Shown piece after piece: positions 1 through 27,800 of a DNA stretch of 53,758 bases. The notes under the pieces were generated by a model. It saw only the letters and a program-made list of their open reading frames with translations. It made no database searches and was not told the origin of the DNA. How positions within the stretch are numbered: position 1 is the first letter of the stretch; every line of letters begins with the position of its first letter. The DNA comes from a virus (taxonomy: Duplodnaviria; Caudoviricetes): the IMG/VR virus record IMGVR_UViG_3300035531_000094, positions 1-53,758 of that record; one strand, 5' to 3'. A program made the position numbers and the translations under genes.

Positions 1-202
1 TTTTCTAATTTTGCTTTTAATTCATCTAAATCCATCGCTCGTATTTTTAAGGTTATTTACTCGTATCAATCTTTGTGCGTGTTCGAGGGCGGCACATACC
101 CTTACATTTTACCGTTGTACGCAAGCGGGTGAAGTGCTTCGATTTTAGTTTTCTGCCAATTTGAAAGAAAAATAAAAAATGCCCCGCCCGCTTCTGTTTT
201 TT

Positions 203-1054
203 TCAAAACAGTTTGAGTTGGCGTTTGTACATATCAAATCTTTGTAGTCCATTATCAAAGTATTCGTTATCAATTTCACAAATATCTAATTCAAATCCTT
301 CCATATCACACGCTATTGCCAAACTCATGCTGCCTCCATTTGTATCTATTATTTTCATGCCTTTGGTTGCATACTTCTGTAAAATGTATCTATAGAGCAT
401 AACAGGTTTTTGCGTTGGGTGAATCCGTTCCTCGTTAAGTTGTTTATTCCCTTGTTGTATAATTGCTTTCATTACATCTTTTCCGCAATAAACACCTTGT
501 ATCATTCCAGCCCAGCGAAAAAACACATTTTCAACTCTTTCAAACATCGAACAATAAGCAATTTCACAATCAGAAAACGAAACGCCTTCTGGTACTAATT
601 TATTCCATATCAACCTGCCACCTTTTAACTGAAAATCCATATAATTTATGCCAAAAATTATTTGATGCTTACTTACTCTTTGGAGTTCGGTTAGCCATTC
701 AATTCCTGCAGGTTCTTTATCCCAATCACCATGTTTATATTTTTTCTTTTTAACATGAAGTGTGCTACCGTTTTTTTGTTTGCATGGTCTATTGTCTTCT
801 TGCGTATAAGCCATTTTTGCAACATTAATTCCATAAGGCGGGTCAACTATTGCAAGGTCGTAATACTTATCGGGTTTAGTTTTCATAAACTCAATATTAT
901 CACATAAATAAAAATTAATTTCCCCACGCTTCGCATTTTTTATTTTTTGTGCTTCGTTGGTAGGTTCGTGCGAACAATCCGCCAGCGTACAACATGCAGT
1001 ATATTCCATGCCTTGCTGTATCTGTTCTTGATGCTTATTTTCTCGTTCAATCAT
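203..1054 (-). CDS. DNA methyltransferase (N6-adenine/N4-cytosine, beta class)
   Basis: DLAIVDPPY catalytic motif, HPTQKP, and a C-terminal SAM-binding motif (IIDTNGGSMS...CEID). Confidence 0.9.
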   Translation of the reverse strand: MIERENKHQEQIQQGMEYTACCTLADCSHEPTNEAQKIKNAKRGEINFYLCDNIEFMKTKPDKYYDLAIVDPPYGINVAKMAYTQEDNRPCKQKNGSTLHVKKKKYKHGDWDKEPAGIEWLTELQRVSKHQIIFGINYMDFQLKGGRLIWNKLVPEGVSFSDCEIAYCSMFERVENVFFRWAGMIQGVYCGKDVMKAIIQQGNKQLNEERIHPTQKPVMLYRYILQKYATKGMKIIDTNGGSMSLAIACDMEGFELDICEIDNEYFDNGLQRFDMYKRQLKLF

Positions 1055-1119
1055 TATCGTAAATTTGAAAGTTAATCACTCGTATTTCGGCACGTAACAT
1101 ACTGCCGTTCGTTATGGGC
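985..1119 (+). repeat. attC-like hairpin 1
   Basis: GCGTACAAC..GCAGTAT..CATGCC / GGCACG..ATACTGC..GTTATGGGC. Confidence 0.75.
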
Positions 1120-1153
1120 AAGCGTAAGAAAACCTCACGCTTGCCCGACAACC

Positions 1154-1390
1154 TTACTCTTTTGTAATGTAGTATTCTTCTTGTATATAAGAATTGTCCA
1201 ACATTTCGATGAACACAAAGTCCATATCTCTTGGCTCTTCGTAATCTTCATCGTTTTCTTTGGCCGATGAAATTGATTTTACCTCAAATGTTGGGCAGCT
1301 TTCATCATCTTCAATAGCTACGTTCATTACTCGTACCTCTAATTCGCTTGGGTACTGTTTCAGTTTTTCAATTAATTCAGATACTAACAT
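1154..1390 (-). CDS. Small acidic hypothetical phage protein
   Basis: ORF 1154..1426; the likelier start is MLVSELIEKL at 1390. Confidence 0.65.
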   Translation of the reverse strand: MLVSELIEKLKQYPSELEVRVMNVAIEDDESCPTFEVKSISSAKENDEDYEEPRDMDFVFIEMLDNSYIQEEYYITKE

Positions 1391-1411
1391 AAAATTGATA
1401 TTAAAACGCCA

Positions 1412-1547
1412 GCCCATAACACACAATATAAAATATACGGGTGTCGGTGCTGTATTGTACGGTACTACCTTTAATTAATTGTCAAATGTATCGGGATAGG
1501 ATACCGCTTTTAATCCCGTACATTTCATATTGTCAAACGTTACCTGC
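1412..1547 (+). repeat. attC-like hairpin 2
   Basis: GCCCATAAC..ACAATAT..TACGGG / CCCGTA..ATATTGT..GTTACCTGC. Confidence 0.75.
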
Positions 1548-2106
1548 AATACCTCTCAACGGATGCGATAGTATCGTGTATAGCCCCGCCATGTGAGAAC
1601 AGTGCAATTCGCTCAACTTCAAAGCCTCTGTTTTTACCCATTGTATTACTGTGGTATCCGAAAGTTATTACAAGTCCATTAGGTTTTAGTATTCTCGGAA
1701 GTTCGTCTTTGAGTTGGCGAAATGGGGAAGCCTTAATCCCATTGTACATTTCCATACTTTTACGATAAGCATAAGGCGGGTCTAACAATATCGTGTTAAA
1801 CCTTTTACCGTCCCATTCTTTAACGAACTGCAATGCGTCCTTGTGATATTCTGCCACCCCATGTTCGCCTAAGTCGTTTCTAACTTCATCAATATCAAGT
1901 TTTGTAATCCCAGCAAATAAATTTAACGTACTACCCTCGCACGTTCTTTCAACCCATTCCCTGATAGGTTTAACACTAAATGTCCATTTATTCAAAGGGC
2001 ATTTAATATAATCAAACATCGGTACAGCAGGTAACACGTTATATAGTGTATTTGCCTCGGTATTTTTAGGTTTTCCTCTTTTATTTTTTGTCATATCGTA
2101 AATCAA
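1540..2106 (-). CDS. Putative adenine DNA methyltransferase (compact)
   Basis: LNLFAG motif I followed by ILLDPPY. Confidence 0.75.
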   Translation of the reverse strand: MIYDMTKNKRGKPKNTEANTLYNVLPAVPMFDYIKCPLNKWTFSVKPIREWVERTCEGSTLNLFAGITKLDIDEVRNDLGEHGVAEYHKDALQFVKEWDGKRFNTILLDPPYAYRKSMEMYNGIKASPFRQLKDELPRILKPNGLVITFGYHSNTMGKNRGFEVERIALFSHGGAIHDTIASVERYCR

Positions 2107-2160
2107 ATTTTGTGTTTCAAATCAGGGGGCAAACACCCCATATAACTATCCGTTACCTGC
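2027..2160 (+). repeat. attC-like hairpin 3 (arms near-identical to hairpin 4)
   Basis: GCAGGTAACACGTTATATAGTGTATTTGCC ... GGCAAACACCCCATATAAC..GTTACCTGC. Confidence 0.8.
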
Positions 2161-2175
2161 AATGCCAGTCCGTGG

Positions 2176-2865
2176 TCAAAACAGGCGTTTCTGCGATGCG
2201 AAAAGTTTAAAACGCTTTTCCTGTTCTTCGAAATAATTTTTATCAATCTCAAATCCTACAAAGTTGAACCCGCCTTTCGCACACGCAATTCTCAATGATC
2301 CACTCCCTACATGGGTATCTAAAATCAAATTGCCTTCGCTCGCATAGTTCATAAGCAGCCAATCATATAATTTAACTGGCTTTTGTGTGGGGTGTATTTT
2401 CATTTCATCGCCTGTTCTTGTGGCTGGCAGTTTATATATCTTTGAAACTGTTTGGAAGCTCATCCACGCAAATTCAGCAGCACTAAAATTTTCAAATGGC
2501 TGCTCTTTATCCCAAATTACAAACCCCCTACTTCCGGGTAAATCAAAGTAATTTCCTCCCCAAATAATTTGATTTTTAGATACCCTGAAAAGTTCGGTGA
2601 AGTAATCAGCACCCGGTTTTATATCCCACCGCTCAACACTGCCATTATTCAACATTCTGTTTTTTAACTTACCTCTGCCATGTGTAGAATCTTTAGGCAT
2701 TCCATAAGGCGGGTCAACTATGGCAAGGTCAAAGCATTTATCTGGAAAGCGTTTTAAACCGTGCATACAATCATCGTTGTACACTATTGAAGGCACAGCA
2801 GGTAACACGTTATATAGTGTATTTGCCGTGGCTTCTTGAACGTCAGTATCTTTGTTTAAGCTCAT
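2176..2865 (-). CDS. DNA methyltransferase (N6-adenine/N4-cytosine, beta class)
   Basis: DLAIVDPPY, HPTQKPV and ILDTHVGSGS motifs; paralogue of 203..1054. Confidence 0.92.
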   Translation of the reverse strand: MSLNKDTDVQEATANTLYNVLPAVPSIVYNDDCMHGLKRFPDKCFDLAIVDPPYGMPKDSTHGRGKLKNRMLNNGSVERWDIKPGADYFTELFRVSKNQIIWGGNYFDLPGSRGFVIWDKEQPFENFSAAEFAWMSFQTVSKIYKLPATRTGDEMKIHPTQKPVKLYDWLLMNYASEGNLILDTHVGSGSLRIACAKGGFNFVGFEIDKNYFEEQEKRFKLFASQKRLF

Positions 2866-2931
2866 ATCTAAATATCAAATTTTGTGTTTCAAATCAGGGG
2901 CAAACACCCCATATAACCATCCGTTAGAAAA
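2798..2931 (+). repeat. attC-like hairpin 4
   Basis: Same arms as 2027-2160; ends in GTTAGAAAA. Confidence 0.8.
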
Positions 2932-2934
2932 GCA

Positions 2935-3159
2935 TTAACCCCATAGCACTCCAGTACCACCGCACGATCTACATGTGTCAGGTGTGGCATCTGAACTTAA
3001 CCATGTTCCGCTTGTCTGATTATAGAAGCCATTTGGAACTATCCCATTTCCGCAGCAAACAGGGCATACATGTGGGGTTAACGACTTTCTAACATCATGT
3101 GATACGTCATCGCCTTGCGGCGGTGTTGTAGTTCTGTCTTTATTCGGTTGATGTAGCAT
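2935..3159 (-). CDS. Small zinc-finger protein (DnaJ-type CxxCxGxG repeats)
   Basis: CPVCCGNG and CRSCGGTG; the likelier start is MLHQ at 3159. Confidence 0.65.
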   Translation of the reverse strand: MLHQPNKDRTTTPPQGDDVSHDVRKSLTPHVCPVCCGNGIVPNGFYNQTSGTWLSSDATPDTCRSCGGTGVLWG

Positions 3160-3223
3160 AATATTTAATTTTTTAGGTTTATTAAAAGCGGCGACGACCG
3201 CATACATGTAATACGTTAGCGTT
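3085..3223 (+). repeat. attC-like hairpin 5
   Basis: CTTTCTAAC..CATGT..TCGCC / GGCGA..ACATG..GTTAGCGTT. Confidence 0.7.
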
Positions 3224-3533
3224 CATTGCTAACAAAATCTATACAAGGCGTAAGTGTGTCTTTATAAAATTTTTGGATAACAACCTTCCCGCCATTTATA
3301 GGAGTCATTTCAAAGTAATATCTATCCTTAAATGAATACACTGGCGTTCCAATTTCAATTTTATTAAATCCGTTATACCCAAAAATTTTATTTAAGTGTC
3401 CTATTAAAATTGGTTGTTCTACCATAGGCAACGAAACGCTAACACCAAATAAATCCAATACTTGCTGTTGTGCGAGTTCAACCGATAGTGTTCCAATTTT
3501 AACTTTGTCTAATATTTCAACTAATTTTTCCAT
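3216..3533 (-). CDS. Hypothetical protein
   Basis: 105-aa ORF; starts in the hairpin 6 loop and stops at the GTTA junction. Confidence 0.65.
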   Translation of the reverse strand: MEKLVEILDKVKIGTLSVELAQQQVLDLFGVSVSLPMVEQPILIGHLNKIFGYNGFNKIEIGTPVYSFKDRYYFEMTPINGGKVVIQKFYKDTLTPCIDFVSNER

Positions 3534-3568
3534 AAATCGTACTGTATTTATTTGTAACCGTTATAAAC
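3435..3568 (+). repeat. attC-like hairpin 6
   Basis: AACGCTAAC..CAAATAAAT / ATTTATTTG..GTTATAAAC. Confidence 0.7.
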
Positions 3569-3586
3569 AACACTACTGAACAGCAT

Positions 3587-3838
3587 TTAATCACCGTCGG
3601 AGGTATTCGGTAATTTATTTTTTCCCGCCCACTTATGCCCTGCGGGGCATTTTGAAAGTGGCATTTTATCAAAGAAATATCCTTTGTATTCAAATGGGAA
3701 TTTGAATGCTTTCAAATAATCATAACTGAAATTCTTATCAGCCAGTTCCGGGTCTTCGCACAAACCCGTTAAGGTGGTGTAAATTGCCACCTCAAACGGA
3801 TTTTCAATGTTTTGTAATTTAATTAGGTGCTTTCTCAT
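3587..3838 (-). CDS. Hypothetical protein
   Basis: 83-aa ORF, last gene of the mini-operon in unit 7. Confidence 0.6.
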   Translation of the reverse strand: MRKHLIKLQNIENPFEVAIYTTLTGLCEDPELADKNFSYDYLKAFKFPFEYKGYFFDKMPLSKCPAGHKWAGKNKLPNTSDGD

Positions 3839-4002
3839 TTTTTTAGATTGTTTTTTTTAATCAGGTTGTTATACTTTTTCTCTGAAATACTCTGAGACAC
3901 ACCTTCAACTTTCAACCAATAGTCAACCTTTCCATTAATTTCTTCGTTCCAGATTTCGCATTTTTGATTTTTGTCGTTCCAAAAAAATATTGAAGTTTTC
4001 AT
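3823..4002 (-). CDS. Small hypothetical protein (59 aa, below ORF-track cutoff)
   Basis: Manual translation MKTSIFFWNDKNQKCEIW...; fills the gap between neighbouring genes. Confidence 0.5.
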
Positions 4003-4018
4003 AATTGTAATTTTTAGA

Positions 4019-4348
4019 TTATAAGCATTTTACGTGATATTGTAATTCTTCTTCTGTTTCTGCTCCGTCAACATCATAAGCATCGAAAAACCATCCGTCA
4101 ATTAATAAGTAGCAGTGAGAAATACCTTCTGAATATTCAGATTCGATAGTTTCATAACCTTCTAATTCATTTTGCATTTCATCAGAAAGATTGTTAACTA
4201 TTTCAACTTCGATTCCCATTTCAGAAAGTGCGTTATATGCTTTTTTCGCAAAAACAGCGCAGTCACCGTTATTAATTTGGTCAGCGTCTCCACCCATTTC
4301 TTCAACTATGCTTTTCAGTGTTTCTTCTATTTGATTCCAGTTTGTCAT
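4019..4348 (-). CDS. Acidic hypothetical protein, possible Cys-His-Asp (papain/transglutaminase-like) fold
   Basis: INNGDCAVFA...SHCYL...FFDA motif spacing. Confidence 0.55.
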   Translation of the reverse strand: MTNWNQIEETLKSIVEEMGGDADQINNGDCAVFAKKAYNALSEMGIEVEIVNNLSDEMQNELEGYETIESEYSEGISHCYLLIDGWFFDAYDVDGAETEEELQYHVKCL

Positions 4349-4527
4349 GATGTTGTATCTTTTTGTTTTATTTCTATACTGTAAAGATACGACATATTTT
4401 TATACTGTGCAAGTTTTTATATAAAAAAATGATGTTTTTTTATACTTTTTTTTCTTTTTCCCTCCCTTCAAAAATAAATTACCAGGGGCGCAGCATTTAA
4501 TGAATGTTGTTTCGGGCTTCCCGTGCA

Positions 4528-4587
4528 GTTTATAACACGGTGTCAAACCGCATTAAAACGACGGTTTACACCTGTCCGTTATAGGGC
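4528..4587 (+). repeat. attC-like hairpin 7 (minimal, about 60 bp)
   Basis: GTTTATAAC AC GGTGT C AAACCG ... CGGTTT ACACC TGTCC GTTATAGGGC. Confidence 0.8.
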
Positions 4588-4851
4588 ATTTAATGGAACC
4601 TTGATTATTTGTTTTTTATTAATTGCAATTAAAGCACATTTCCCTTGTATTGTATTATCAATACTAGTATATGCATAATCAGTTTCTGCATTGTGAATAT
4701 TAAATTCAGTCCTAATCATATTTCTATAACCAACAAATATACCTGTTGTTTCTTTTATTTGAATTACATCCCAATATCGCTCATCATTATCAGTAGTTCT
4801 TACATATTTTACTTTTACTGTAACCTTATCACCTAAATTCAAAGTTTCCAT
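4579..4851 (-). CDS. Hypothetical protein
   Basis: 90-aa ORF stopping at the GTTA junction. Confidence 0.65.
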   Translation of the reverse strand: METLNLGDKVTVKVKYVRTTDNDERYWDVIQIKETTGIFVGYRNMIRTEFNIHNAETDYAYTSIDNTIQGKCALIAINKKQIIKVPLNAL

Positions 4852-4862
4852 AATTTTTACAT

Positions 4863-4961
4863 ATTTATAACAAGCAATATATTTAATTGCCTGTCAAGTT
4901 ACTACTAATTTTAAAAGTATCTGGTATGGCAACTAATCATATTGCCGTACCGTTATAGGGC
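4863..4961 (+). repeat. attC-like hairpin 8
   Basis: TATAAC AA GCAATAT..TTGCC / GGCAA..ATATTGC..GTTATAGGGC. Confidence 0.75.
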
Positions 4962-4963
4962 AT

Positions 4964-5149
4964 TTAAATCAGCCCTAAATCACGTGCTGAATCTTCTGGT
5001 GTCATTCCGTCTAAAGTATCGGAAAAATAAGTATCTAATTTATTTGCGTATTTTTCCGAACGAACTAATTGCTTCCGAAATTCTTTTGCTAATTTCTTGC
5101 CTTCTTCTGTTTTTATGTGTTTTCGTAGTTTGTCAAATTCTTCAATCAT
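4964..5149 (-). CDS. Hypothetical protein
   Basis: 61-aa ORF filling unit 9. Confidence 0.6.
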   Translation of the reverse strand: MIEEFDKLRKHIKTEEGKKLAKEFRKQLVRSEKYANKLDTYFSDTLDGMTPEDSARDLGLI

Positions 5150-5164
5150 AACTCAAGTAAAAAC

Positions 5165-5302
5165 GCCCTATAACCAGCGGTCATAAAACAGCAGGGCATA
5201 TGTGCTGTTCGTACCGTTGTGCATCTATTCATCATTTGTAGTAGGCTGATAGGGTTCTGCGCTTAATCCCTGCCGTTTCATACCGCCAAATCGTTAGCAA
5301 CC
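5165..5302 (+). repeat. attC-like hairpin 9
   Basis: GCCCTATAAC..GCGGT..AAAC.GCAGGG / CCCTGC.GTTT..ACCGC..GTTAGCAACC. Confidence 0.75.
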
Positions 5303-5638
5303 ATTTTGTGCTTTTTTATAGCCTTCCATAAACCCCTCAATCATCCAGTATTTTTCCATGGCTGTAAATCTATCTTCTACGCTTAACGCAATTTCATCCT
5401 CCAGCCATTTGTCAGCAAGTTCACCAATTTCTTTAAATGATAAACGGTCGCTAACATGCGGTATATTGCAGTTGCTTTCGCTTTGTTCAACTCCGTTCGC
5501 TAACTTCTGCTCTAAAAATTCAACATATTCATTACAATAAGACCCTTGTTCACTATGCATATCTCCAATACCAGTATCTTGTAAAAATCTGCATCGTTGG
5601 TGCTTTTCTTCAAATTCTTTTATAAGTTCCGTTTTCAT
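5294..5638 (-). CDS. Hypothetical protein
   Basis: 114-aa ORF; starts in the hairpin 10 loop and stops at the GTTA junction. Confidence 0.65.
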   Translation of the reverse strand: MKTELIKEFEEKHQRCRFLQDTGIGDMHSEQGSYCNEYVEFLEQKLANGVEQSESNCNIPHVSDRLSFKEIGELADKWLEDEIALSVEDRFTAMEKYWMIEGFMEGYKKAQNGC

Positions 5639-5736
5639 AATCGCTCTCTATTTAAGTTGTTTAACATTATTATTTTAATCAAAGTCGGTAGGTTATTCAG
5701 CGGCAACCGACAACATACCGCAGTAATGTTAGCAAC
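5446..5736 (+). repeat. attC-like hairpin 10 (long coding loop)
   Basis: GGTCGCTAAC A TGCGGTAT..GTTGC / GCAAC..ATACCGCA..GTTAGCAAC. Confidence 0.7.
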
Positions 5737-5745
5737 AATAAAAAA

Positions 5746-5925
5746 TTATTCCCTCTGTTGCTCTCTATCGTCCTCTTGTGCCCTATCGTCTATTTGCTCA
5801 GGAAATTGCCTTTCATAAAGCGATTCAGCATATCCCCACCCACGCAAATATTCAAGTCCCGGATCTCCTTTGGGTTCTTTACCTAAATAATAATCGTCCA
5901 TTCCTGTATCAAATTTATTTGACAT
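5746..5925 (-). CDS. Small acidic hypothetical protein (59 aa)
   Basis: Manual translation MSNKFDTGMDDYYLGKEPK...; fills unit 11. Confidence 0.55.
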   Translation of the reverse strand: MSNKFDTGMDDYYLGKEPKGDPGLEYLRGWGYAESLYERQFPEQIDDRAQEDDREQQRE

Positions 5926-5936
5926 AATTTTTAAAA

Positions 5937-6038
5937 GTTGCTAACAAAGGCTATAAACAAAAAGCCTCTGTTAAGGTTAATATTTCAATTTATCTTTTGT
6001 GGTATTGGCTTTCAGTTCATAGCCAAACCGTTGTAACG
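5937..6038 (+). repeat. attC-like hairpin 11
   Basis: GTTGCTAAC..GGCTAT.AAC..AAAGCC / GGCTTT..GTT.ATAGCC..GTTGTAACG. Confidence 0.75.
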
Positions 6039-6142
6039 CATTTTGCGCAGAAATTTTGCGCTAAAAAACAATTCACTTCTTAGCGCAAAACGTACGCTTC
6101 GCCGTTACAACTCTGTGTATAGTGCATAGCTTGTCGGTGCAT

Positions 6143-6346
6143 TTAGTCAACATCAGAGGAGTTATTCGTTTTAATATTTTTCCCTCCCTCTTTGCTTTTT
6201 ACAAAAGCATAAAAACTGCATAAACCTGCTTCGATGCGTTTTTTTGCGGAGCTATTTCTAAAGCTTAGATAATTGCTATATCCGAAGAACTCGGCTATCT
6301 GTTTGCCAGATAAGCCGAGTTCTTTTTTTAGTTGTTTAATGTTCAT
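6143..6346 (-). CDS. Small HTH DNA-binding protein
   Basis: IKQLKKELGLSGKQIAEFFGY is XRE/Cro-like. Confidence 0.65.
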   Translation of the reverse strand: MNIKQLKKELGLSGKQIAEFFGYSNYLSFRNSSAKKRIEAGLCSFYAFVKSKEGGKNIKTNNSSDVD

Positions 6347-6522
6347 TTTTGAAATTGTTTCAAATCAAATCCACTTGGCAATTCAGCAATTAAATCACTT
6401 CCTTTTATGATGCTTTTCATTAATGTATCTGCATCTTTTTTGTTGCCTTCTTTTTCGCCGTTTAAAATTTCAATTGCTGTTGCTACTTCTGAGTTGCTTA
6501 ATTCAATTCTTTGAGTTTCCAT
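6343..6522 (-). CDS. Small hypothetical protein (59 aa)
   Basis: Manual translation METQRIELSNSEVATAIEIL...; ATGA overlap with the HTH gene. Confidence 0.55.
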   Translation of the reverse strand: METQRIELSNSEVATAIEILNGEKEGNKKDADTLMKSIIKGSDLIAELPSGFDLKQFQK

Positions 6523-6574
6523 CTTGTTTTGTCTTAAATAGTTATTCGGGAAATATCCCCCATTGTTTCTAATA

Positions 6575-6628
6575 CAAATGTAAGCATTTAATTACAAACC
6601 ACCAAATAAAGTAAGCAAACAATTACAA
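6575..6628 (-). promoter_or_regulatory. Bacteroidota-type promoter with tandem operator-like repeats
   Basis: Minus-strand TACATTTG matches the -7 TAnnTTTG consensus, with an upstream TTTG. GTAAGCA-N4-ATTACA occurs twice. Confidence 0.6.
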
Positions 6629-6742
6629 TAAAATGTTATAGAACATATAATCCCGCCCTAAAAATATTAAAACTACTCTGGTGCAATTAATCAACAACAG
6701 TGAGGCTACACGCTACGACACCATACACGTGTAGCGTTGTGG

Positions 6743-6928
6743 TCATTGCTCCAAAAACCACGCTCTGATAGTTCTGTAATCGAATTTACCGTCTTTATAA
6801 TCATGTGGTATTTTGCTTTCATAAAACTTGTTAGATAAGTCGCTCCACCACCACGAAGGCAACGAACCGCTAACAAGCAATATAAAACATGCCTTAATTC
6901 TCTGTTTAATTGAAAGTTTGTTTTTCAT
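6743..6928 (-). CDS. Hypothetical protein
   Basis: 61-aa ORF starting in the hairpin 13 loop. Confidence 0.55.
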   Translation of the reverse strand: MKNKLSIKQRIKACFILLVSGSLPSWWWSDLSNKFYESKIPHDYKDGKFDYRTIRAWFLEQ

Positions 6929-7000
6929 ATCGAATTTATTTTTTAATTTATAGTTTCGTGTTTCAAATCAGCACGTTTCATATTGCCGACCGTTATAAGC
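6866..7000 (+). repeat. attC-like hairpin 13 (last in the array)
   Basis: GCTAAC AA GCAATAT.AAAC.TGC / GCA.GTTT.ATATTGC..GTTATAAGC. Confidence 0.75.
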
Positions 7001-7002
7001 CA

Positions 7003-7206
7003 TTAGCCAACCCACAAAGAAAGCTGCTTAGTCTCATTTGTGAATCTTTGGCAACCATCTTCAAAGTAATCTTTTTCAATTTCACATCCGTAAAAATCCA
7101 AACCCATTTCCCACGCTGCGAGTCTACTGCTTTGGCTGCCTAAGTGAGTGTCTAATATTTTGTTTATTGCATCGCTGCCTTCTACTGTGTTCTTTTTTTT
7201 ATTCAT
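7003..7206 (-). pseudogene. C-terminal fragment of a DNA methyltransferase
   Basis: ILDTHLGSQSSRLAA...GCEIEKDYF matches the C-termini of the two beta-class MTases, but DPPY is absent. Confidence 0.75.
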
Positions 7207-7245
7207 TTTTGTAAGTGTTTATTTAAATTTGTTATATTAATATCA

Positions 7246-7575
7246 TTACACCACAATCGGTTCTCCACAAAAAGGGCATTCGCCAATCTGTATTACTTTA
7301 GTTCTATGGAAACTCCACGCACTTGCCATATCAATTTCACTATCCGTCATTGGCGTGTACCAGTTTCCTGAAACTTGACCTGTTATGTCGTAGTATTTTC
7401 CGTTATATTTTGTTATTACATGATTTTTTTCATTTGTAATGTAAGGTTCGCATTCCGGAAAATAAGTCTTCAGGAGTAAAAAAAACTGATAACACGCGCC
7501 GTTCATGTATATCATTTCGATGTACTTGTCGGTTTTTCGAATTGCGTTTATGAACTGTAATATGTTAGTTGTCAT
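7246..7575 (-). CDS. Hypothetical protein with C-terminal CPFCG
   Basis: 109-aa ORF in the operon; GAC...HV...YYDITG motif. Confidence 0.7.
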   Translation of the reverse strand: MTTNILQFINAIRKTDKYIEMIYMNGACYQFFLLLKTYFPECEPYITNEKNHVITKYNGKYYDITGQVSGNWYTPMTDSEIDMASAWSFHRTKVIQIGECPFCGEPIVV

Positions 7576-7578
7576 TTT

Positions 7579-8100
7579 TCAATATCTAAAATTTGTGAAA
7601 TGAATAATTGCCATTGGTTTATTTTGTCGGACTTTAAACCAGTCGCAAAAATCATCAAATGAAAGCCCATCGTTTTTAGCGATTTCTTCCCAGTTAATCA
7701 TTTTCCCATTTATAGGAGCAAAAACAAAGTTTGTAGGGTCTTCGAGTTTTTGAATTCCAACCCCTGATTCATTGTCGAGCCTGGCGAACTCTACCTGCTT
7801 TGACCCGTCTTTTTTGTAGTTATACGGACTGCCGGACCAATAGCGCAAGGATAAATAAGCATTGCCAGCAATAACTTCATCAATCCTTTTTTTCCATAGC
7901 TCGTAGTTGCCCCGTATGGTGTGAATTTTCTCTATTGTGACTTCGGAATATAACTTCCTTTCTTTAATCAGTTCTTGGCTTCCTTCCTTCCACATGGGAG
8001 CTATTTTGTTATAGATTTTCTCGACGAAAAAGGTTGGCTGTCCTTTCTGATTGTGTGTTGCCGGAAATGTCCGGCTTACTGTTAATACGTAAGTTTTCAT
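7579..8100 (-). CDS. Phage protein, possibly ASCH/PUA-like
   Basis: KIHTIR and IAKNDGLSFDDFCDWF motifs. Confidence 0.55.
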   Translation of the reverse strand: MKTYVLTVSRTFPATHNQKGQPTFFVEKIYNKIAPMWKEGSQELIKERKLYSEVTIEKIHTIRGNYELWKKRIDEVIAGNAYLSLRYWSGSPYNYKKDGSKQVEFARLDNESGVGIQKLEDPTNFVFAPINGKMINWEEIAKNDGLSFDDFCDWFKVRQNKPMAIIHFTNFRY

Positions 8101-8110
8101 TGTTGTTGTT

Positions 8111-8782
8111 TTAAATTTTGATTATATCATTACTTCTTTTGCTCTTCGAGTCGCTTAAAACGATAACGTTAAAGCATTCTTTTGCTCTTTCTTCAAGTCG
8201 TGGGTTATTGAGGTTTTTTTCGAGTTTGTTTTGTAAAATTTTGGGAGTGAAGTTTGAGCTTACAAGTAATCCCCTTCGGTTATTATTAATCTCACGATAA
8301 TCCAAAAATTCAACAATAGGAAAAGATGTACGGTCAAGCTTTATCATCCCCATCTCATTTACATCGTTGATTTTAATTGGCATCTTAAAATATTCCGGGT
8401 TTAAATTGAACCATTTTTTATTGAATTCACTAAATGTAAATTCCCGTATTTTTTTTCCAAACTCAGCGTAAAAAGCAACAATGGTTTTTAATATTAAATC
8501 CTTACCAACCCCTTGTGGCGAGCAGAGCCATAAACCTTTTTGTAAATCTCCTTTAAAATCGGGTGAAAGTATGCTCCAATTAAAAACAGAAAGGAGCAAT
8601 GTTTTATCGTTGTTTGATAATTTATATTCCTTACTCCTCTCTAAAACAAGGGATTTATGGATAAACGCAAAGAGTTTCTTTAGATAATAGGCTTCTTCTT
8701 TATTAAAGTTTGAATGTATTTTCTCTCGGTTATCCAGTTTTAAGAGCAATTGCGATCGTATTTTAAGATAGTTATGGTTCAT
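8111..8782 (-). CDS. DnaC/IstB-like P-loop ATPase (helicase loader), degenerate motifs
   Basis: KGLWLCSPQGVGKD Walker A-like motif and SSNF; directly follows the initiator gene. Confidence 0.65.
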   Translation of the reverse strand: MNHNYLKIRSQLLLKLDNREKIHSNFNKEEAYYLKKLFAFIHKSLVLERSKEYKLSNNDKTLLLSVFNWSILSPDFKGDLQKGLWLCSPQGVGKDLILKTIVAFYAEFGKKIREFTFSEFNKKWFNLNPEYFKMPIKINDVNEMGMIKLDRTSFPIVEFLDYREINNNRRGLLVSSNFTPKILQNKLEKNLNNPRLEERAKECFNVIVLSDSKSKRSNDIIKI

Positions 8783-9513
8783 ATTTCAAGTAGATTTTTA
8801 GATTTATTGGACGGATGGCTTTTAATTTCATTATTTATCCATTCTGCTTTTAATCCCTGCCAGCTTTTTTCAGCGGCAATTTTTACACATTCATTAGCCG
8901 GGACACCCGAAATTTCAATTTGCTTTTTAATGCCATTGAAAGCCGTTTTTGTATTTGCGGCTTTTTTCTTTGCCCGTACTTTTATCCAATCTTCAGCGAT
9001 TTGTTTTTCTACACCTAAATCAATAATTGAATTCTTAAAATTAAATTGAGTATCATTTTTATCTAAAATATTTCTGAGTTCTAATATTTGTTTATTTGTT
9101 AATTGTTCTTTGTTTAATTGTTTAATTATACTATCAATGCTTTGTACAGTGCTTTCACCTTGCTTTGTACTGTGCTTTATTAGAGCTTTATCAAGTGCTT
9201 TATCAGGTGCTTTATCAAAATATGATAGGGCAATGATATTTGATGAATATTGATTTTTACTTTTTTGGATGAGTTTTATAAAACCAAAATCAATTAGTTC
9301 GTTGAGTGTTTTGATATAGGTATTATAAGAATGGATGCCAATTGCTTCTTTTGCCATTGAAGTAGGCAGGCCGAACTTTTCCTTCCACCCCAACCTGTTG
9401 CAATGCTCTATGCAAAAAAAATACAGCGCGGTATGGCTTGGATTTATTTTTTCTGGATTTTCAAAACAATAGTCAAACCACTTACGGCTCAATGTATAGC
9501 TATTTATGTTCAT
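8779..9513 (-). CDS. Phage replication initiator (N-terminal winged-HTH)
   Basis: N-terminal HTH-like region, low-complexity linker, and a C-terminal W..VRAKKKA...WQGLKAEW domain; paired with the ATPase. Confidence 0.65.
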   Translation of the reverse strand: MNINSYTLSRKWFDYCFENPEKINPSHTALYFFCIEHCNRLGWKEKFGLPTSMAKEAIGIHSYNTYIKTLNELIDFGFIKLIQKSKNQYSSNIIALSYFDKAPDKALDKALIKHSTKQGESTVQSIDSIIKQLNKEQLTNKQILELRNILDKNDTQFNFKNSIIDLGVEKQIAEDWIKVRAKKKAANTKTAFNGIKKQIEISGVPANECVKIAAEKSWQGLKAEWINNEIKSHPSNKSKNLLEI

Positions 9514-9514
9514 A

Positions 9515-10216
9515 TTACCTCTTCTTCCACGGGTTTTGAATTCCTTTTTCTTCTAATATATCTTTAAATTTTGCTTTATACTTACTGGAAATATCCTCTA
9601 ATAAGGCAGCATCAAGTTTCATAGGCTGTCTTTTAATCTCCATCAATTTCTCCATAGTATCTTTGCCATGCTTATTTTTAATATAGACAGCCATTTCATC
9701 CATACTCCCACCCCGGTAATGGTTACACTGGTCGCATTGTGGTCCTACATTTAGCTCTAAAAATGCTGTTGAATAGTTTGTGTTGTTGCCGTCAAAAACT
9801 TTGATGTAATGACCAACATGGCAATTTCTACTATTAACAAGCATTAGTTTTCCGCAAGTACAACACCTGGTGGTTGTTCCCTTTTTGTCGATTGTGTTTT
9901 TCAATAAAATACATCTTGAAAACCATCTCCATGCCGTCGATTTATAAAACCTTTCTTTAGGTGTTTTAAGCTTGTTTTTGACCTTCTTTTTATTTGGGGT
10001 GTACTTACCCGGCTTAAAGCCCGAACGTTTATTATACCCCATCAGGTTGCTTTGAGAAAGCAATTTTTTGTTCTCCTTCCTTCGTTTTTTCGATTCAAAG
10101 TCTTTTAAGGATTGGCACCGGTGGCATAGTTTTGGGTTAATTGTGCTGTTGTTATGCGGCTTTCTGAATGTTTCGCCGCATAGTTTACAGATTAGTTGTT
10201 CGCCTTCGTGTATCAT
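9515..10216 (-). CDS. NinG/Rap-like endonuclease
   Basis: CCTCG..CHVGHY..NVGPQCDQCN..GG motif pattern of the lambda NinG family. Confidence 0.75.
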   Translation of the reverse strand: MIHEGEQLICKLCGETFRKPHNNSTINPKLCHRCQSLKDFESKKRRKENKKLLSQSNLMGYNKRSGFKPGKYTPNKKKVKNKLKTPKERFYKSTAWRWFSRCILLKNTIDKKGTTTRCCTCGKLMLVNSRNCHVGHYIKVFDGNNTNYSTAFLELNVGPQCDQCNHYRGGSMDEMAVYIKNKHGKDTMEKLMEIKRQPMKLDAALLEDISSKYKAKFKDILEEKGIQNPWKKR

Positions 10217-24850: not shown

Positions 24851-27800
24851 ATGCAAGACAACAATCAAAGCCAGTTTAGCACATTAGTTAAAGATTTGTA
24901 TTCTAAGTATAGTCCCGAAAAGGTTGATAAACTTGATGATGAAACGTTAAGCAACATCGAAAAAACCTATAACGGGGATTATAAGACCTTTGTGTCTGAT
25001 TATTACAAAAAGAACAGACCTGATAAGGTTGACCAATTGAATGATGAGACTTATGCTAATATTGCTAAGACTTACGGTTTTTCAGATGGTAATAAACAGT
25101 CCGGAACTTCCGGGCAACCACAAGGACAAAATGAGGGCACAAATGAAAAAAAGAAAAGTGGCTTTGGTCGAGAAATGTTGCTGCAATCAGCAAGTGGTTT
25201 GGGAGACCAGGTATACCGAGGTATCTTAAATATTCCCGATAATGCTTTAAGAATAGCTTCTGTTGCTACAAATCCAATTGCAAGGCTTATTGGGCTACCT
25301 GAATACAACCCCGGTGATATAAATAAGGTTACGGGAATTGAAAATATTGATGAGTATATAGCCAACGAAACAGAGAAATATCAAAAAGAGGTAAAAGAGA
25401 TAAACCCTCAGATTGAAGCTGGTGTTATGGACTCAATGAAAAAAGGAGATTGGAATACTGGGTTTAGAAACCTTGCCAGTGGTCTCGCACATTCTTCAAT
25501 GCCATCCCTTCTTATGATGGCTGCACCTATGGCTGGTGCTTCTGCCGGAGGACAGATTGCGGCTTCAACGGGTATGTTTGGCTCTGCCAGATTAAAAGAG
25601 CTTGACGAAACAATGCCAGAATTAAGCGAGGAGCAAAAACTTATTGCAGCTAATATCAACGGGGCATTAGAGGGTATATTTGAAACGTACTTTGGTTCTG
25701 GTGCTGTTGGTGAATCATTGGTCAAAAACATAATCAAGGAGCAGGGTGTAAAGGCAGGAAAGGAAACAGTTAAAAAAGGCATGCGCCAAATGTTTTCTGA
25801 TGCGCTTACCAAAAACCCTGCGTTAGCACCATTGGGAGAAATGTATGAGGAAATGGGTACGCAGGTGGCTCAGAACCTCACAGACAAACTTACAGGTGTT
25901 AATCCTGATATTGAAGTTACGGACGGTTTGTGGGATGCCGGGTTATTAGGTTTAGCTGGTGGTGCTACCCACGGAGGAGCAATTAAAGGGGCACAATATT
26001 TGTCACAGAAAGTAGGGAAAAAGAGGGCAGAAAGCCAAGCAAGACAGACCATCCAACAAAACCTTGCCCCCATCACCCACAAGGACGGAAACGTCCACCA
26101 AATTACCAACGAACAAGACGAAATGTTTTTTGTCGTTGATGAAACAGACGGTGGGATGCTCACTGTTAAAGATATTGCCGGTAATGAAAAGATTGTACCT
26201 GCTGATGAATTTCGTACACCTGAGGTTAAATCTGTTCAAGAGATAACAGAACAAGAACTCGCAGCATGGGAGCAGGAGTATACATTACAGGAACAAATGA
26301 AAGCCGAACAACAGGCTATTCAGGAGAAATATTCTAATGTGCCGGAGCAATGGGAAAAGGACGGTGTTACGTACCGTTTTGTCAATGACCCACAAAACAT
26401 AACACCTGATGGCAGTATAGTTGTAGAAGCTACCGACCAGATGGGGAATGTTACACCAAAAGAATTTACACAAGAGGAGATTAACAGCGTTATCCAAGAG
26501 CAAAAGGAAGCGGCACAGGCAGAGCAAGAAGAGGCTGCTAAATTACAAGAGGAACAGCAAGGCGAACAACCCGAGGAGCAGGAAGTAATAGAGAAACCAA
26601 AGCAGACTTTTAAGATTGACAATAAAGAGTTTGAAATGGAACAGGCAGAGGATGGTTCATTTATCCTCAATGCCGGGCAAAAAGACCTTAAGACCATTCA
26701 GGAAAACACCGATACGGACAATTTCGATGTTGAACTGATTACCGAGGACGTACCAGCTGACCCAAATGTACCTGCATTTGTAAAACAAAAGCCAAAGCAG
26801 AATGTTAAAGGGGTTAAAATAACACCAAAACAAAAGCAAAATGACACACCACCATCGAGCGAACAAAACACAATGCCACAATATCGCTATCTTGACAAAC
26901 AAATAAGCGACAAGAAAGCAAATGCTTTAATCGACATGGCAGAGAGTGTTGATGACCTGTATGGCTTTGAATTTGAGAATGACGAAAAACTGAGCAAAAA
27001 GATTGAAAAGAAATTTCCTGAGCTGAACCCGGCATATGAGGTAAACGGGCAAAAGGTTGACCGGGAATATGTCGAGAATGCCATTGAGTTTGCAAACACC
27101 CCCGAAAAGCTATCCAAAATAAACGTCAGGAATGACCAGGAGCTACAATCTTTGATAGAAGAGAAAGAAGCTGAGTTGCGTGTACCAAATGCAAAAGAAA
27201 CAAAAGAACGTGCCTTAAAAGCAGAGCCACGGACATTGCGCGAACTCTTGTTACAATACTTCGTGAATGGTGGACGGGTTAACACCAATGATGTCAAAAT
27301 GGACATTACAGGCAAATCTGTGAAAGAAAACCAAAGCAAGTTAGGCTTTGTCTCTAATAATGCACCTTCTATCGACCAATTACAGGAACGTTTGTTGCCG
27401 GGCACTGCTTTTGAGCAAGCGATGGACGACCCGACCAATTTCAGGAATGAAGTTATTGACGTATTGAGTTCTTATCAAGGCAGGGCAGGGATGCTTGAAG
27501 ATATCAGCGAACTTGGTATGACTGAAGATCAACGGTATGATGCGGATATGGCTAAATTCATGCCGGAGGTGAAAGTAGAACGTGTACAGGACGGTAATAA
27601 AGTGAAGTTTGTTTCAAACAACGACATGAACGGTGTTGAGGTTGATGCCAACGATTATAACGAAGTGGCACAGACAGAAACAACCCCGGAAGAGGAACAA
27701 TTTGCCGCTTTACTTCCTGACGAATATTACTTACCTTTACTTGAAAGTGAGGATAATGCCCCATCGATGCAAGATATCGAGGCATATGAACTTTTATATA

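Follow-up and report, generated by a model that had tools for sequence, protein, structure and literature searches.

Between positions 100 and 7000, in the left 7 kb of the phage record IMGVR_UViG_3300035531_000094 (linear, about 85% complete, from oil-field metagenomes), lies a row of about 14 gene cassettes. We refer to the whole stretch of DNA analysed, 53,758 nt, as the window. Every plausible ORF in 1-7300 is on the minus strand, as a first-pass annotation had stated for the cargo ORFs. The cargo comprises three full DNA methyltransferases, which represent an anti-restriction cargo, and small genes of unknown function.

Each cassette begins with G|TTR; at its far end the first bases recur as their reverse complement (...YAAC), and an imperfect hairpin comes next. 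The cassette spans from G|TTR... up to the next ...CG. The complement is exact over 8 nt in nine cassettes, and the chain of complementary boxes has 15 links in the window, the first 7 of which are real sites, compared to 3 to 9 links in 30 shuffles. The sites have ...YAAC and GTTR... as outer boxes, an inner stem of about 19 bp and spacers of 2 nt and 5 nt. In the long form (about 133 nt), the loop holds an A-rich leader, an ATG and about 15 to 25 codons. Phage sites and host chromosomal sites share a conserved A/T-rich motif between outer arm and ATG, which may represent a promoter or belong to the site itself. Loops of 75 to 250 unpaired nt, as found here, are unusual in a hairpin substrate.

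A covariance model trained on 42 sites from other phages only (R1) yielded 11 matches in window positions 1-9000 (E <= 0.01), all on the minus strand and all within 986-6999; at E <= 1, no match fell outside 986-6999 over the whole 53.7 kb. Among the 42 sites, 93.4% of the cells are paired (68.5% when shuffled, 38-48% with the partners slid), and 18 of the 19 inner-stem pairs show compensatory change. A G.U pair is present at TAACG/TGTTA in all 42 sites and at stem pair 13 in 40, while no extrahelical base is conserved. The better-folding ("bottom") strand, which is the minus strand in the window, carries these invariant wobbles as G.T, at positions that are A.C mismatches in the other strand. 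Because the better-folding strand also carries the cargo genes in sense orientation, the cassettes are reversed in comparison to classical ones. The locus is an array of reversed cassettes in which the site lies at its gene's 5' end, opposite to classical attC cassettes.

All features of the array lie on the minus strand. The left edge (1-116) was recognized from sequence as the start of an ORF running off the contig (ATG at 35) and the 3' half of a site; this half-site ends in the box GTTGTACG (G at 114), complementary to 986-993. Metagenome contigs part from the record right after 116, and the array probably extends past the left end of the record. Cassette 1 encodes an N6/N4 DNA methyltransferase (203-1054, 283 aa; PF01555 6.8e-10, phrog_23224 1.7e-44) with its putative start at 1054 in the loop of site 1, a site of the long type (986-1118; R1 37.6 bits, E 1.3e-7; also by its fold). 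Cassette 2 (1112-1539) holds a small ORF (1154-1426), whose first ATG (1417) is within the AAC box and not in the loop of site 2 (1413-1546; 72.5 bits, E 3.4e-16). Two further methyltransferases with putative loop starts follow in cassettes 3 (1540-2094, 184 aa; phrog_11619 6.7e-41), whose ORF ends on the TAA within the box at 1539-1542, and 4 (N6/N4 type, 2176-2865, 229 aa; PF01555 3.1e-16). Their sites are near-twins by alignment (site 3, 2028-2159, 49.7 bits; site 4, 2799-2930, 50.9 bits). The two units share the left box and, as noticed previously, the entire right-hand site, with DNA identity from TAAC to about 7 nt beyond the inner box and none thereafter; the proteins resemble each other in the leader and in a weak DPPY motif but nowhere else.

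The product of cassette 5 is small and rich in Cys and has two CxxCxGxG-like motifs (2935-3159; site 5, 3086-3222, 39.5 bits, E 4.4e-8); protein family searches gave no match for it. Its probable start is the loop codon at 3159, which the first-pass annotation had preferred over 3207 for ORF 2935-3207; we agree, because 3207 falls within an arm. The 105-aa ORF of cassette 6 (3216-3533) starts at the loop edge and stops on the box TAA (site 6, 3436-3567, 47 bits). Cassette 7 has complementary end boxes at 3560 and 4529 and holds three ORFs in 3587-4348 (3587-3838, 3835-4002 and 4019-4348), for which Atlas yielded leads only; its site is of a short type, a hairpin alone with the gene start outside (4529-4585; 18.1 bits, E 0.008; fold -11 kcal). 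Cassette 8 encodes 90 aa and stops on the box TAA (4579-4851), next to a site of intermediate length (4864-4959; 39.5 bits). Cassette 9 (61 aa, 4964-5149) has complementary boxes at 4952 and 5167 and belongs with site 9 (5167-5300; 55.7 bits, E 4.5e-12). The 114-aa ORF of cassette 10 (5294-5638), again stopping on the box TAA, has its first 60 or so codons, by translation and fold, within the expanded loop of site 10. This site (5450-5735) is atypical, with about 250 nt between the arms, and was identified by eye and folding only, without an R1 match; it folds at -31 kcal on the minus strand versus -19.7 kcal on the plus strand.

Cassette 11 (59 aa, 5746-5925) is bounded by the inverted repeat 5727-5749/5924-5946 and has site 11 (5938-6037; 44.4 bits). 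Site 12 (6030-6111) is a stand-alone hairpin with two mutually complementary boxes (6030 linked to 6104; fold -19.7 kcal; no R1 match) and looks like an empty cassette. Cassette 13 holds two small ORFs (6143-6346 and 6343-6522, together 6143-6522) with no match in protein family searches. Its short site (6692-6743), found by eye and folding and without an R1 match, has boxes that are complementary in part only. Cassette 14 (61 aa, 6743-6928) has a putative loop start in the highest-scoring site of the array (site 14, 6867-6999; 80.5 bits, E 3.8e-18). The cargo of cassettes 2, 6-11 and 14 consists of ORFs of unknown function. The right edge is a C-terminal methyltransferase fragment (7003-7206; PF01555 8.3e-4, profile positions 185-217 only; phrog_67), to the right of which no site was found.

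The seven starts named in the first-pass annotation (1054, 2106 or the ATG at 2094, 2865, 3159, 3533, 5638 and 6928) all lie between the two arms of a site. Sequence, folds and R1 sites agree that the ORFs continue across the inner arm and AAC box, and the listed peptides are found in the translations (NTLYNVLPAVP in both 1540-2106 and 2176-2865; HDVRKSL, FGVSVSL, PHVSDRL and LLVSGSL). At 1540, 3216, 4579 and 5294, the stop coincides with the TTA of a GTTA box whose G is at 1539, 3215, 4578 and 5293, respectively. This confirms the observation of antisense ORFs with loop starts, with the restriction that "antisense" holds relative to classical attC polarity only, since the genes sit on the better-folding strand.

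The interpretation attached to this observation, that the site supplies the translation start and an N-terminal leader, is partly supported. In 50 related sites, a loop ATG is open through the box in 37 of 46 gene frames versus 2 of 92 other frames. The two different methyltransferases of cassettes 3 and 4 carry one common leader, and the leader of about 25 residues is absent from homologous methyltransferases outside arrays (L003, L004, L005 and L011). The loop starts remain putative, because 9 of the 46 sites have no loop ATG and about one third also have an in-frame GTG or ATG at the box. The TAA of the box is the stop codon at 16 of 49 junctions.

Comparison of five cultured Flavobacterium phages (at least 97%, mostly more than 99%, identical) gave 64 alignment ends. 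Sixty of these are at the GTTA box (51 no more than 15 nt from a CGTTA box and 9 at the first AGTTA site), in comparison to 10.6% of random positions scored likewise. Hairpins differ where the gene on their left (in plus-strand coordinates) differs, for instance hemulen 3652 versus snork 2813, so that each hairpin goes with the gene whose start it contains, as had been proposed; gene and site move as units with exact ends. Metagenome contigs of the same lineage show joints or divergence at 116, 1114, 3214 to 5728 (6 shared letters), 3559, 5728 and 6032, several of these joints having fewer than 30 letters on one side. Together with the complementary cassette ends, these data bear out the previously suggested crossover at the box, in that the sites show the behavior of recombination sites crossing over at G|TT.

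Searches for recombinases of all kinds came back empty for the window, the complete hemulen genome and a viral record with a completeness rating of 100%. Because none is encoded in these phages, the recombining enzyme can only be inferred. The site family matches in 117 of 151 Flavobacteriaceae genomes, spread over many contigs, and this dispersal means that some copies may be MITE-like. The genome of Winogradskyella marina contains 33 copies, with one array directly downstream of a gene for a 405-aa tyrosine recombinase, and the same layout occurs in at least 16 genomes among the matches listed. This host recombinase is Xer/IntI-like and does not have the IntI-specific insertion, which is described as essential for IntI (PMC8138268). 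In the host arrays, R1 matches lie on the strand opposite to the genes and have the same invariant G.U pairs as the phage sites. Most host genes are in the classical sense orientation and end before the site, and the site loops contain a small extra hairpin instead of a coding leader. Thus, phage and host arrays share the covariance-model family, the G.T pairs and the box logic, but differ in gene orientation, loop content and the presence of a recombinase gene.

Classical attC cassettes, such as the approximately 125-bp repeats of sedentary chromosomal integrons, likewise have imperfect palindromes with outer AAC/GTT and inner boxes, uniform array polarity, one strand folding better, sites of about 60-135 nt and crossover at G|TT; therefore, the first bases of a cassette are complementary to its end box. 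The phage arrays differ in having ORFs on the folding (bottom) strand, the site 5' of the gene with start and leader in the loop, fixed G.T wobbles in place of extrahelical bases, and spacers of 2 and 5 nt, and IntI is absent from the phage and from the sampled host family. Chromosomal integrons contain a minority of reverse-oriented, self-promoted toxin-antitoxin cassettes that are independent of Pc. These share genes running against the usual array direction, whereas reversal is the rule in phage arrays (64 of 64 R1 matches on the methyltransferase strand in viral loci, with matches in 19 of 80 loci, and 11 of 11 in the window) and the ORF appears to begin within the site.

The promoter-stem-loop (PeSL) cassettes of T4-type phages are thought to shuffle via homology between repeats. 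They share with our array small accessory genes, a location in the phage early region and repeated hairpin elements with expression signals. It is unlikely that the hairpins here are such terminator or promoter units, with genes shuffled by repeat homology and not by a site-specific enzyme. The missing recombinase, the RecT and SbcC-like recombination genes present in the phage, the conserved A/T-rich motif and start codon in the loop, and the near-identical sites flanking units 3 and 4 would fit such regulatory repeats. However, exchange takes place at a box of 4-5 nt even between unrelated hairpins, repeat homology leaves the complement between first bases and far-end box unexplained, and host arrays lie behind a tyrosine recombinase, with the sites after and not before the genes. 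We consider it very unlikely that the element of about 134 nt is a non-autonomous palindromic MITE- or REP-like element of Flavobacteriaceae, with the "cassettes" being intervening genes. Its occurrence in 117 of 151 of the family's genomes, and on numerous contigs within one genome, suits such an element, but gene and site travel jointly with exact ends, the end boxes pair across the gene and not across the element, an in-frame ORF runs through the element in the 37 of 46 cases above, and array polarity is strictly uniform. A function of the hairpins in RNA, e.g., RNase III or other processing or regulation of a polycistronic early transcript, appears highly improbable: the invariant G.U pairs are on the gene-sense strand of the phage sites and the minus strand folds better, as such a role would have it, yet in host arrays the strand bearing the G.T pairs is antisense to the genes and the pairs are still invariant. 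The G|TT breakpoints and complementary cassette ends would also be left without explanation.

It is also unlikely that the array is an ordinary CALIN, whose attC sites would have been captured from a classical integron and would be acted on by a host IntI of the classical type. Published phage CALINs with methyltransferases point in this direction, among them that of Polaribacter phage P12002L, of which one attC was recombined by IntI1, on the bottom strand only (PMC9892861). P12002L, a phage of Flavobacteriia, resembles our phage in the missing integrase and the methyltransferase cargo, and its attC is usable by an integron integrase; the parts of that report considered here give no account of long arrays, reversed ORFs, starts within sites or a host counterpart. 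Qi et al. 2023 (PMC9892861) describe its two sites as "with divergent directions"; we found short sites with the polarity of the window array, and R1 gave them no score. Against a classical IntI, none of 301 Flavobacteriaceae genomes gave a match above the TIGR02249 cut-off (two of three proteobacterial control genomes matched), the recombinase beside the host arrays has no IntI insertion, extrahelical bases are not conserved, and the ORFs are reversed.

We therefore favor, with fair though not full confidence, an integrase-less, reversed integron-type cassette array, carried by a phage that infects Flavobacteriia-like hosts and recombined in trans through an enzyme of the host. Cassettes would be gained, lost and swapped through single-strand tyrosine-recombinase exchange at G|TT. 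The host would supply the recombinase, the candidate being the Xer/IntI-like enzyme that heads arrays of this site family in Flavobacteriaceae chromosomes. Judging from the reading frames, translation would proceed from the loop ATG through the inner arm and box into the gene, and the putative stop codon would often be the TAA in the following box. Reversed, site-bearing cassettes may thereby give such phages a quick exchange of anti-restriction genes.

The window is an entire IMG/VR virus record, linear and about 85% complete. A rightward structural module includes a portal gene and a single 3984-aa ORF (24851-36805), and a leftward early operon carries anti-repressor, SbcC-like, RecT, NinG/Rap and O-like genes. 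The cassette array (1-7200) occupies the far end of this operon. The first-pass annotation had placed all cargo ORFs on the minus strand, and indeed every plausible ORF in 1-7200 lies there. Among named phages, those of Flavobacterium, Polaribacter and Cellulophaga carry the closest relatives of the cargo genes. A NinG/Rap-like junction endonuclease (9515-10216) is the sole early-region protein besides the methyltransferases that links the window to the cultured Flavobacterium phage hemulen (gp044) and to G001 (2758-3381), a viral record rated 100% complete; the match between the window and G001 runs via hemulen and is not direct. A scan of viral contigs for relatives of the protein encoded at 8111-8782 returned none.

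PHROGs and Pfam provided no name for 12 of the small cargo ORFs, and a protein atlas gave only unnamed clusters and a weak YunG-like lead for 4019-4348. Two CxxCxGxG-like motifs, of the kind known from DnaJ-type zinc fingers, occur in the 74-aa cargo protein of cassette 5 (2935-3159). The inner edge of the array, 7003-7206, encodes just the final ~50 residues of a methyltransferase behind a new N-terminus, with no site to its right; this fragment may be left over from the founding of the array. At 3036, 5408 and 5755-5791, about 30 nt of the phage match short metagenome contigs, with the same ~25-nt sequence on both sides of the match. These look like repeat-flanked CRISPR spacers against the cassette region and could identify the host.

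On the plus strand, each unit starts with a GTTR box, and the bases at its far end (YAAC) are the reverse complement of those with which it starts; an imperfect hairpin and the next GTTR follow. The ends are exact 8-nt complements in nine cassettes (114/986, 1111/1413, 1539/2028, 2152/2799, 2923/3086, 3215/3436, 3560/4529, 4952/5167 and 5728/5938). A simple detector for AAC...GTT plus a stem was too noisy (52 and 36 matches on the two strands, compared to 20-37 in shuffles) and was replaced by a box-chain test and then by a covariance model. The chain of complementary-box links reached 15 in the window, the first seven being true sites, versus 3-9 in 30 shuffled sequences. The covariance model (R1) was built from 42 long sites of other phages (alignment A1), none of them from the window. 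It detected 11 sites in 1-9000 at E <= 0.01, all 11 on the minus strand, with scores of 37-80 bits for ten sites and 18 bits for one short site. Over the whole window, R1 at E <= 1 found no site beyond 986-6999. Three candidate sites missed by R1 are proposed from boxes and fold only: one with a 250-nt loop (5450-5735) and two further ones (6030-6111 and 6692-6743). No Rfam family matched the window at gathering thresholds, and an exact DNA pattern derived from sites 3, 4 and 14 had no match in viral contigs.

The sites belong to one family, and its fold is conserved. Among 95 box-chain-supported candidates from the window and 81 other loci, 45 have an AAC-to-GTT distance of 115-121 nt. The A1 sites are imperfect inverted repeats of the attC type, with outer and inner boxes and AAC...GTT ends, and TAACG and TGTT are invariant among them. 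In the named structure of A1, 93.4% of cells are paired, compared to 68.5% in shuffles and 38-48% when partners are slid, and compensatory changes were observed in 18 of the 19 pairs of the inner stem. On the gene-sense strand, TAACG pairs with TGTTA including a G.U pair in all 42 sites, a further G.U occupies stem pair 13 in 40 of 42, and the spacers of about 5 and 2 nt hardly vary. One strand therefore folds better, because the wobbles become A.C mismatches on the other. In attC sites, extrahelical bases in the inner stem set the strand choice. Conserved bases of this kind were not found in A1: most sites have arms of the same length, an extra inner-stem base occurs in a minority of rows, and the G.T wobbles are fixed instead.

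The similarity of hemulen to Flavobacterium phage 2A and to an oyster-associated phage is confined to one site in each case (129 and 77 nt), which indicates that such sites are common to otherwise unrelated phages. A phage-type cassette with its own long site and leader was also found on a 2.9-kb contig filed under a Methanolobus MAG (L089). Its methyltransferase is 77% identical to that encoded at 2176-2865 of the window, and the contig is probably a mis-binned phage contig.

The usual integron cassette carries a promoterless ORF in sense orientation that ends before attC. No such arrangement was seen here. When 80 viral loci were oriented by their methyltransferase, all 64 R1 matches, from 19 loci, fell on the gene strand (28 of the 64 lay outside the training set). 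At the 11 window sites, as at these 64, the gene lies on the folding strand and starts in or next to the site.

The ORF ends described in the first-pass annotation held up. The seven ORF starts named there (1054, 2106, 2865, 3159, 3533, 5638 and 6928) all lie between the hairpin arms, the leader peptides quoted with them are all present in the translations, and the four stops (1540, 3216, 4579 and 5294) coincide with the TTA of GTTA boxes. Units 3 (1540-2094) and 4 (2176-2865) had been singled out as ending in the same hairpin. At the DNA level, the two agree over a stretch that runs exactly from TAAC to a few bases beyond the inner box. At the protein level, the resemblance is limited to the leader and a weak DPPY motif.

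Across loci, an ORF of at least 150 nt lies downstream of 46 of 50 sites. At 37 of these 46, an ATG of the gene frame is located 40-95 nt from the TAAC end and the frame stays open to the box, compared to 2 of 92 for the other two frames. A loop ATG is lacking at nine of the 46 sites, and cassette 2 of the window starts at the box. The frequency of an in-frame GTG or ATG at the box, about 13 of 37 sites and no more than chance predicts, lends no support to such a codon as the true start. An A-rich stretch precedes the loop ATG, and an A occupies +4, in 27 of 37 sites; translation probably begins at this ATG. The reading frame relative to the arms varies between sites, which argues that the arms are conserved as DNA and that the leader peptides are by-products. 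Methyltransferase homologues in four loci without sites (L003, L004, L005 and L011) begin about 8 residues before the conserved domain. The array methyltransferases carry differing leaders of ~25 residues, and their similarity starts directly after the box. At 16 of 49 junctions, the TAA of the box terminates an ORF of 40 or more codons.

The point of exchange could be located by comparing the five cultured Flavobacterium phages (hemulen, stinky, snork, lillamy and morran), which share at least 97% (mostly more than 99%) identity outside their differing cassette content. Their long alignments have 64 internal ends, of which 51 are no more than 15 nt away from a CGTTA box (10.6% for random positions), with right ends mostly exactly on its A. 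A further nine lie at a conserved first AGTTA site beside gp004, and four lie beyond the array. Thus, 60 of 64 breakpoints are at a GTTA box, in keeping with exchange at G|TT. Joints in metagenomes also fit: contigs of the same phage lineage from four oil-field runs join or diverge from the window at 116, 1114, 3559, 5728 and 6032, and the joint 3214->5728 shares six letters. Six of 16 joint ends fall within 2 nt of predicted crossovers; several of the joints have short sides and carry little weight alone. The first-pass annotation had further assigned each hairpin to the gene on its left. This assignment held at hemulen 3652 versus snork 2813, where the left gene and the hairpin differ and the right gene is common; the hairpin therefore moves together with the gene whose start lies in or next to it. 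In all five phages, a first site without a hairpin (...GTAGTTA) is present beside gp004 (L001:1984-2040 and the same place in L082-L085). Cassette content differs directly after it in all five, and this site may play the part of attI.

T4-type PeSL cassettes are shuffled via homology between similar promoter-stem-loop repeats. Shuffling by repeat homology fits the present arrays poorly, as breakpoints occur between unrelated hairpins that have only the box in common. Hairpin elements of the IS200/IS605 type are marked by a Y1 (HUH) transposase or its guide hairpins; the window has no PF01797 match. Searches of the window for a tyrosine recombinase (PF00589) were also negative, and no recombinase was found in the complete hemulen genome or in G001; an integrase with the IntI insertion is absent from the window and the related complete phages. 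The array is a real feature, and the best reading of it is a row of reversed integron-type cassettes without an integrase. A CALIN is defined by two or more attC sites called by the IntegronFinder/HattCI models with no intI nearby; in the window, no integrase was found and Rfam gave no match. Integron attC sites are recombined in vivo as a folded single strand, preferentially the bottom one. The enzyme that recombines the sites described here would act in trans, presumably on a folded single strand.

When bacterial genomes were searched with the methyltransferase, three strong sites came to light on a contig of Winogradskyella marina; the genome has 33 site copies. One array lies directly behind a gene for a 405-aa tyrosine recombinase (L177:2757-3974, where L177 is G005:C1:122001-140114). 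This array comprises at least 11 sites and sense-oriented cassettes, including a ParE pair, LysR and a flavodoxin-like gene. The recombinase scores 219 bits with NF040815 (cut-off 220) and 199 bits with TIGR02249 (cut-off 265). Aligned with two true IntI proteins, it misses ~40 residues of the IntI-specific insertion and has an extra N-terminus of ~105 residues. We regard this chromosomal locus as an integron-like platform with a Xer/IntI-like recombinase. No viral locus yielded a tblastn match to the recombinase. R1 matches in the host array (29-77 bits) lie, with one exception, on the strand opposite to long ORFs, and gene-strand matches in phages thus mean that phage cassettes point the opposite way to most of those in the host. 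The G.U pairs of the phage sites are likewise invariant in the host sites, here on the antisense strand, which shows that the strand asymmetry belongs to the DNA site and not to an mRNA.

In Flavobacteriaceae, R1 matches at E <= 1e-5 were present in 117 of 151 genomes (G005-G155) and a recombinase homologue at E <= 1e-50 in 96. Among the matches listed (the best 150 of ~720), 16 genomes have the recombinase followed by sites of the expected polarity within ~1-13 kb. Classical IntI (TIGR02249 over cut-off) was found in none of 301 Flavobacteriaceae genomes; the control was positive in two of three proteobacterial genomes. Standard integron surveys would miss this system. The IntegronFinder 2 paper reports almost no integrons in Bacteroidetes (PMC9024848), a gap probably due to the atypical nature of the sites and of the recombinase. 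The insertion is described, in an excerpt of Smyshlyaev et al. 2021, as not fully conserved in the integron-like subgroup (PMC8138268).

CALINs have been described in phages. Qi et al. 2023 describe them in 17 phages, among them Polaribacter phage P12002L, which has two methyltransferases and a pair of sites lying "with divergent directions"; one of the sites, P12002L_attC2, is recombined by IntI1 as the bottom strand (section 3.4; PMC9892861). By eye and box pairs, many genes of P12002L are separated by short sites that agree with the present ones in box logic and polarity, and R1 gave no match there at E <= 0.01. Variable methyltransferases in Flavobacterium phages were reported by Nilsson et al. 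2020, and the words hairpin, palindrome and integrase are absent from the text (PMC7077304). Our full-text search of one literature collection returned nothing on cassettes of reversed orientation, on gene starts within attC or on arrays in Flavobacteriaceae. To our knowledge, a recombination site that doubles as a translation start has no described counterpart in integrons.

With a little less than even confidence, we propose a second integron system, non-classical and common to Flavobacteriia and their phages, with an insertion-less Xer-like enzyme, G.T-marked sites, reversed cassettes in phages and plug-in counter-defence. A Xer-like recombinase without the IntI insertion would act on attC-like sites, the reactive strand being marked by fixed G.T wobbles rather than flipped-out bases, and phages would use the host enzyme in trans. 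In the reversed cassettes, the site would have a second role and provide the cargo gene with its 5' leader, its start codon and its N-terminal peptide. Counter-defence genes, anti-restriction methyltransferases among them, would thereby become plug-in units, expressed wherever they are inserted in the early operon, with transcription that may come from that operon.

Cultures exist of hemulen, stinky, snork, lillamy and morran as well as of their hosts, which makes the system directly testable. With the translation start built into the recombination site, the design would be compact, and it predicts unrelated proteins with common site-encoded leaders. If the proposal is true, phages would gain a gene-capture device of the integron kind. 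It would account for closely related Flavobacterium phages that differ mainly in the methyltransferases they carry, differences that have been linked to plating efficiency in the part of Nilsson et al. 2020 consulted (PMC7077304), and integron-like biology would be extended to Bacteroidota.
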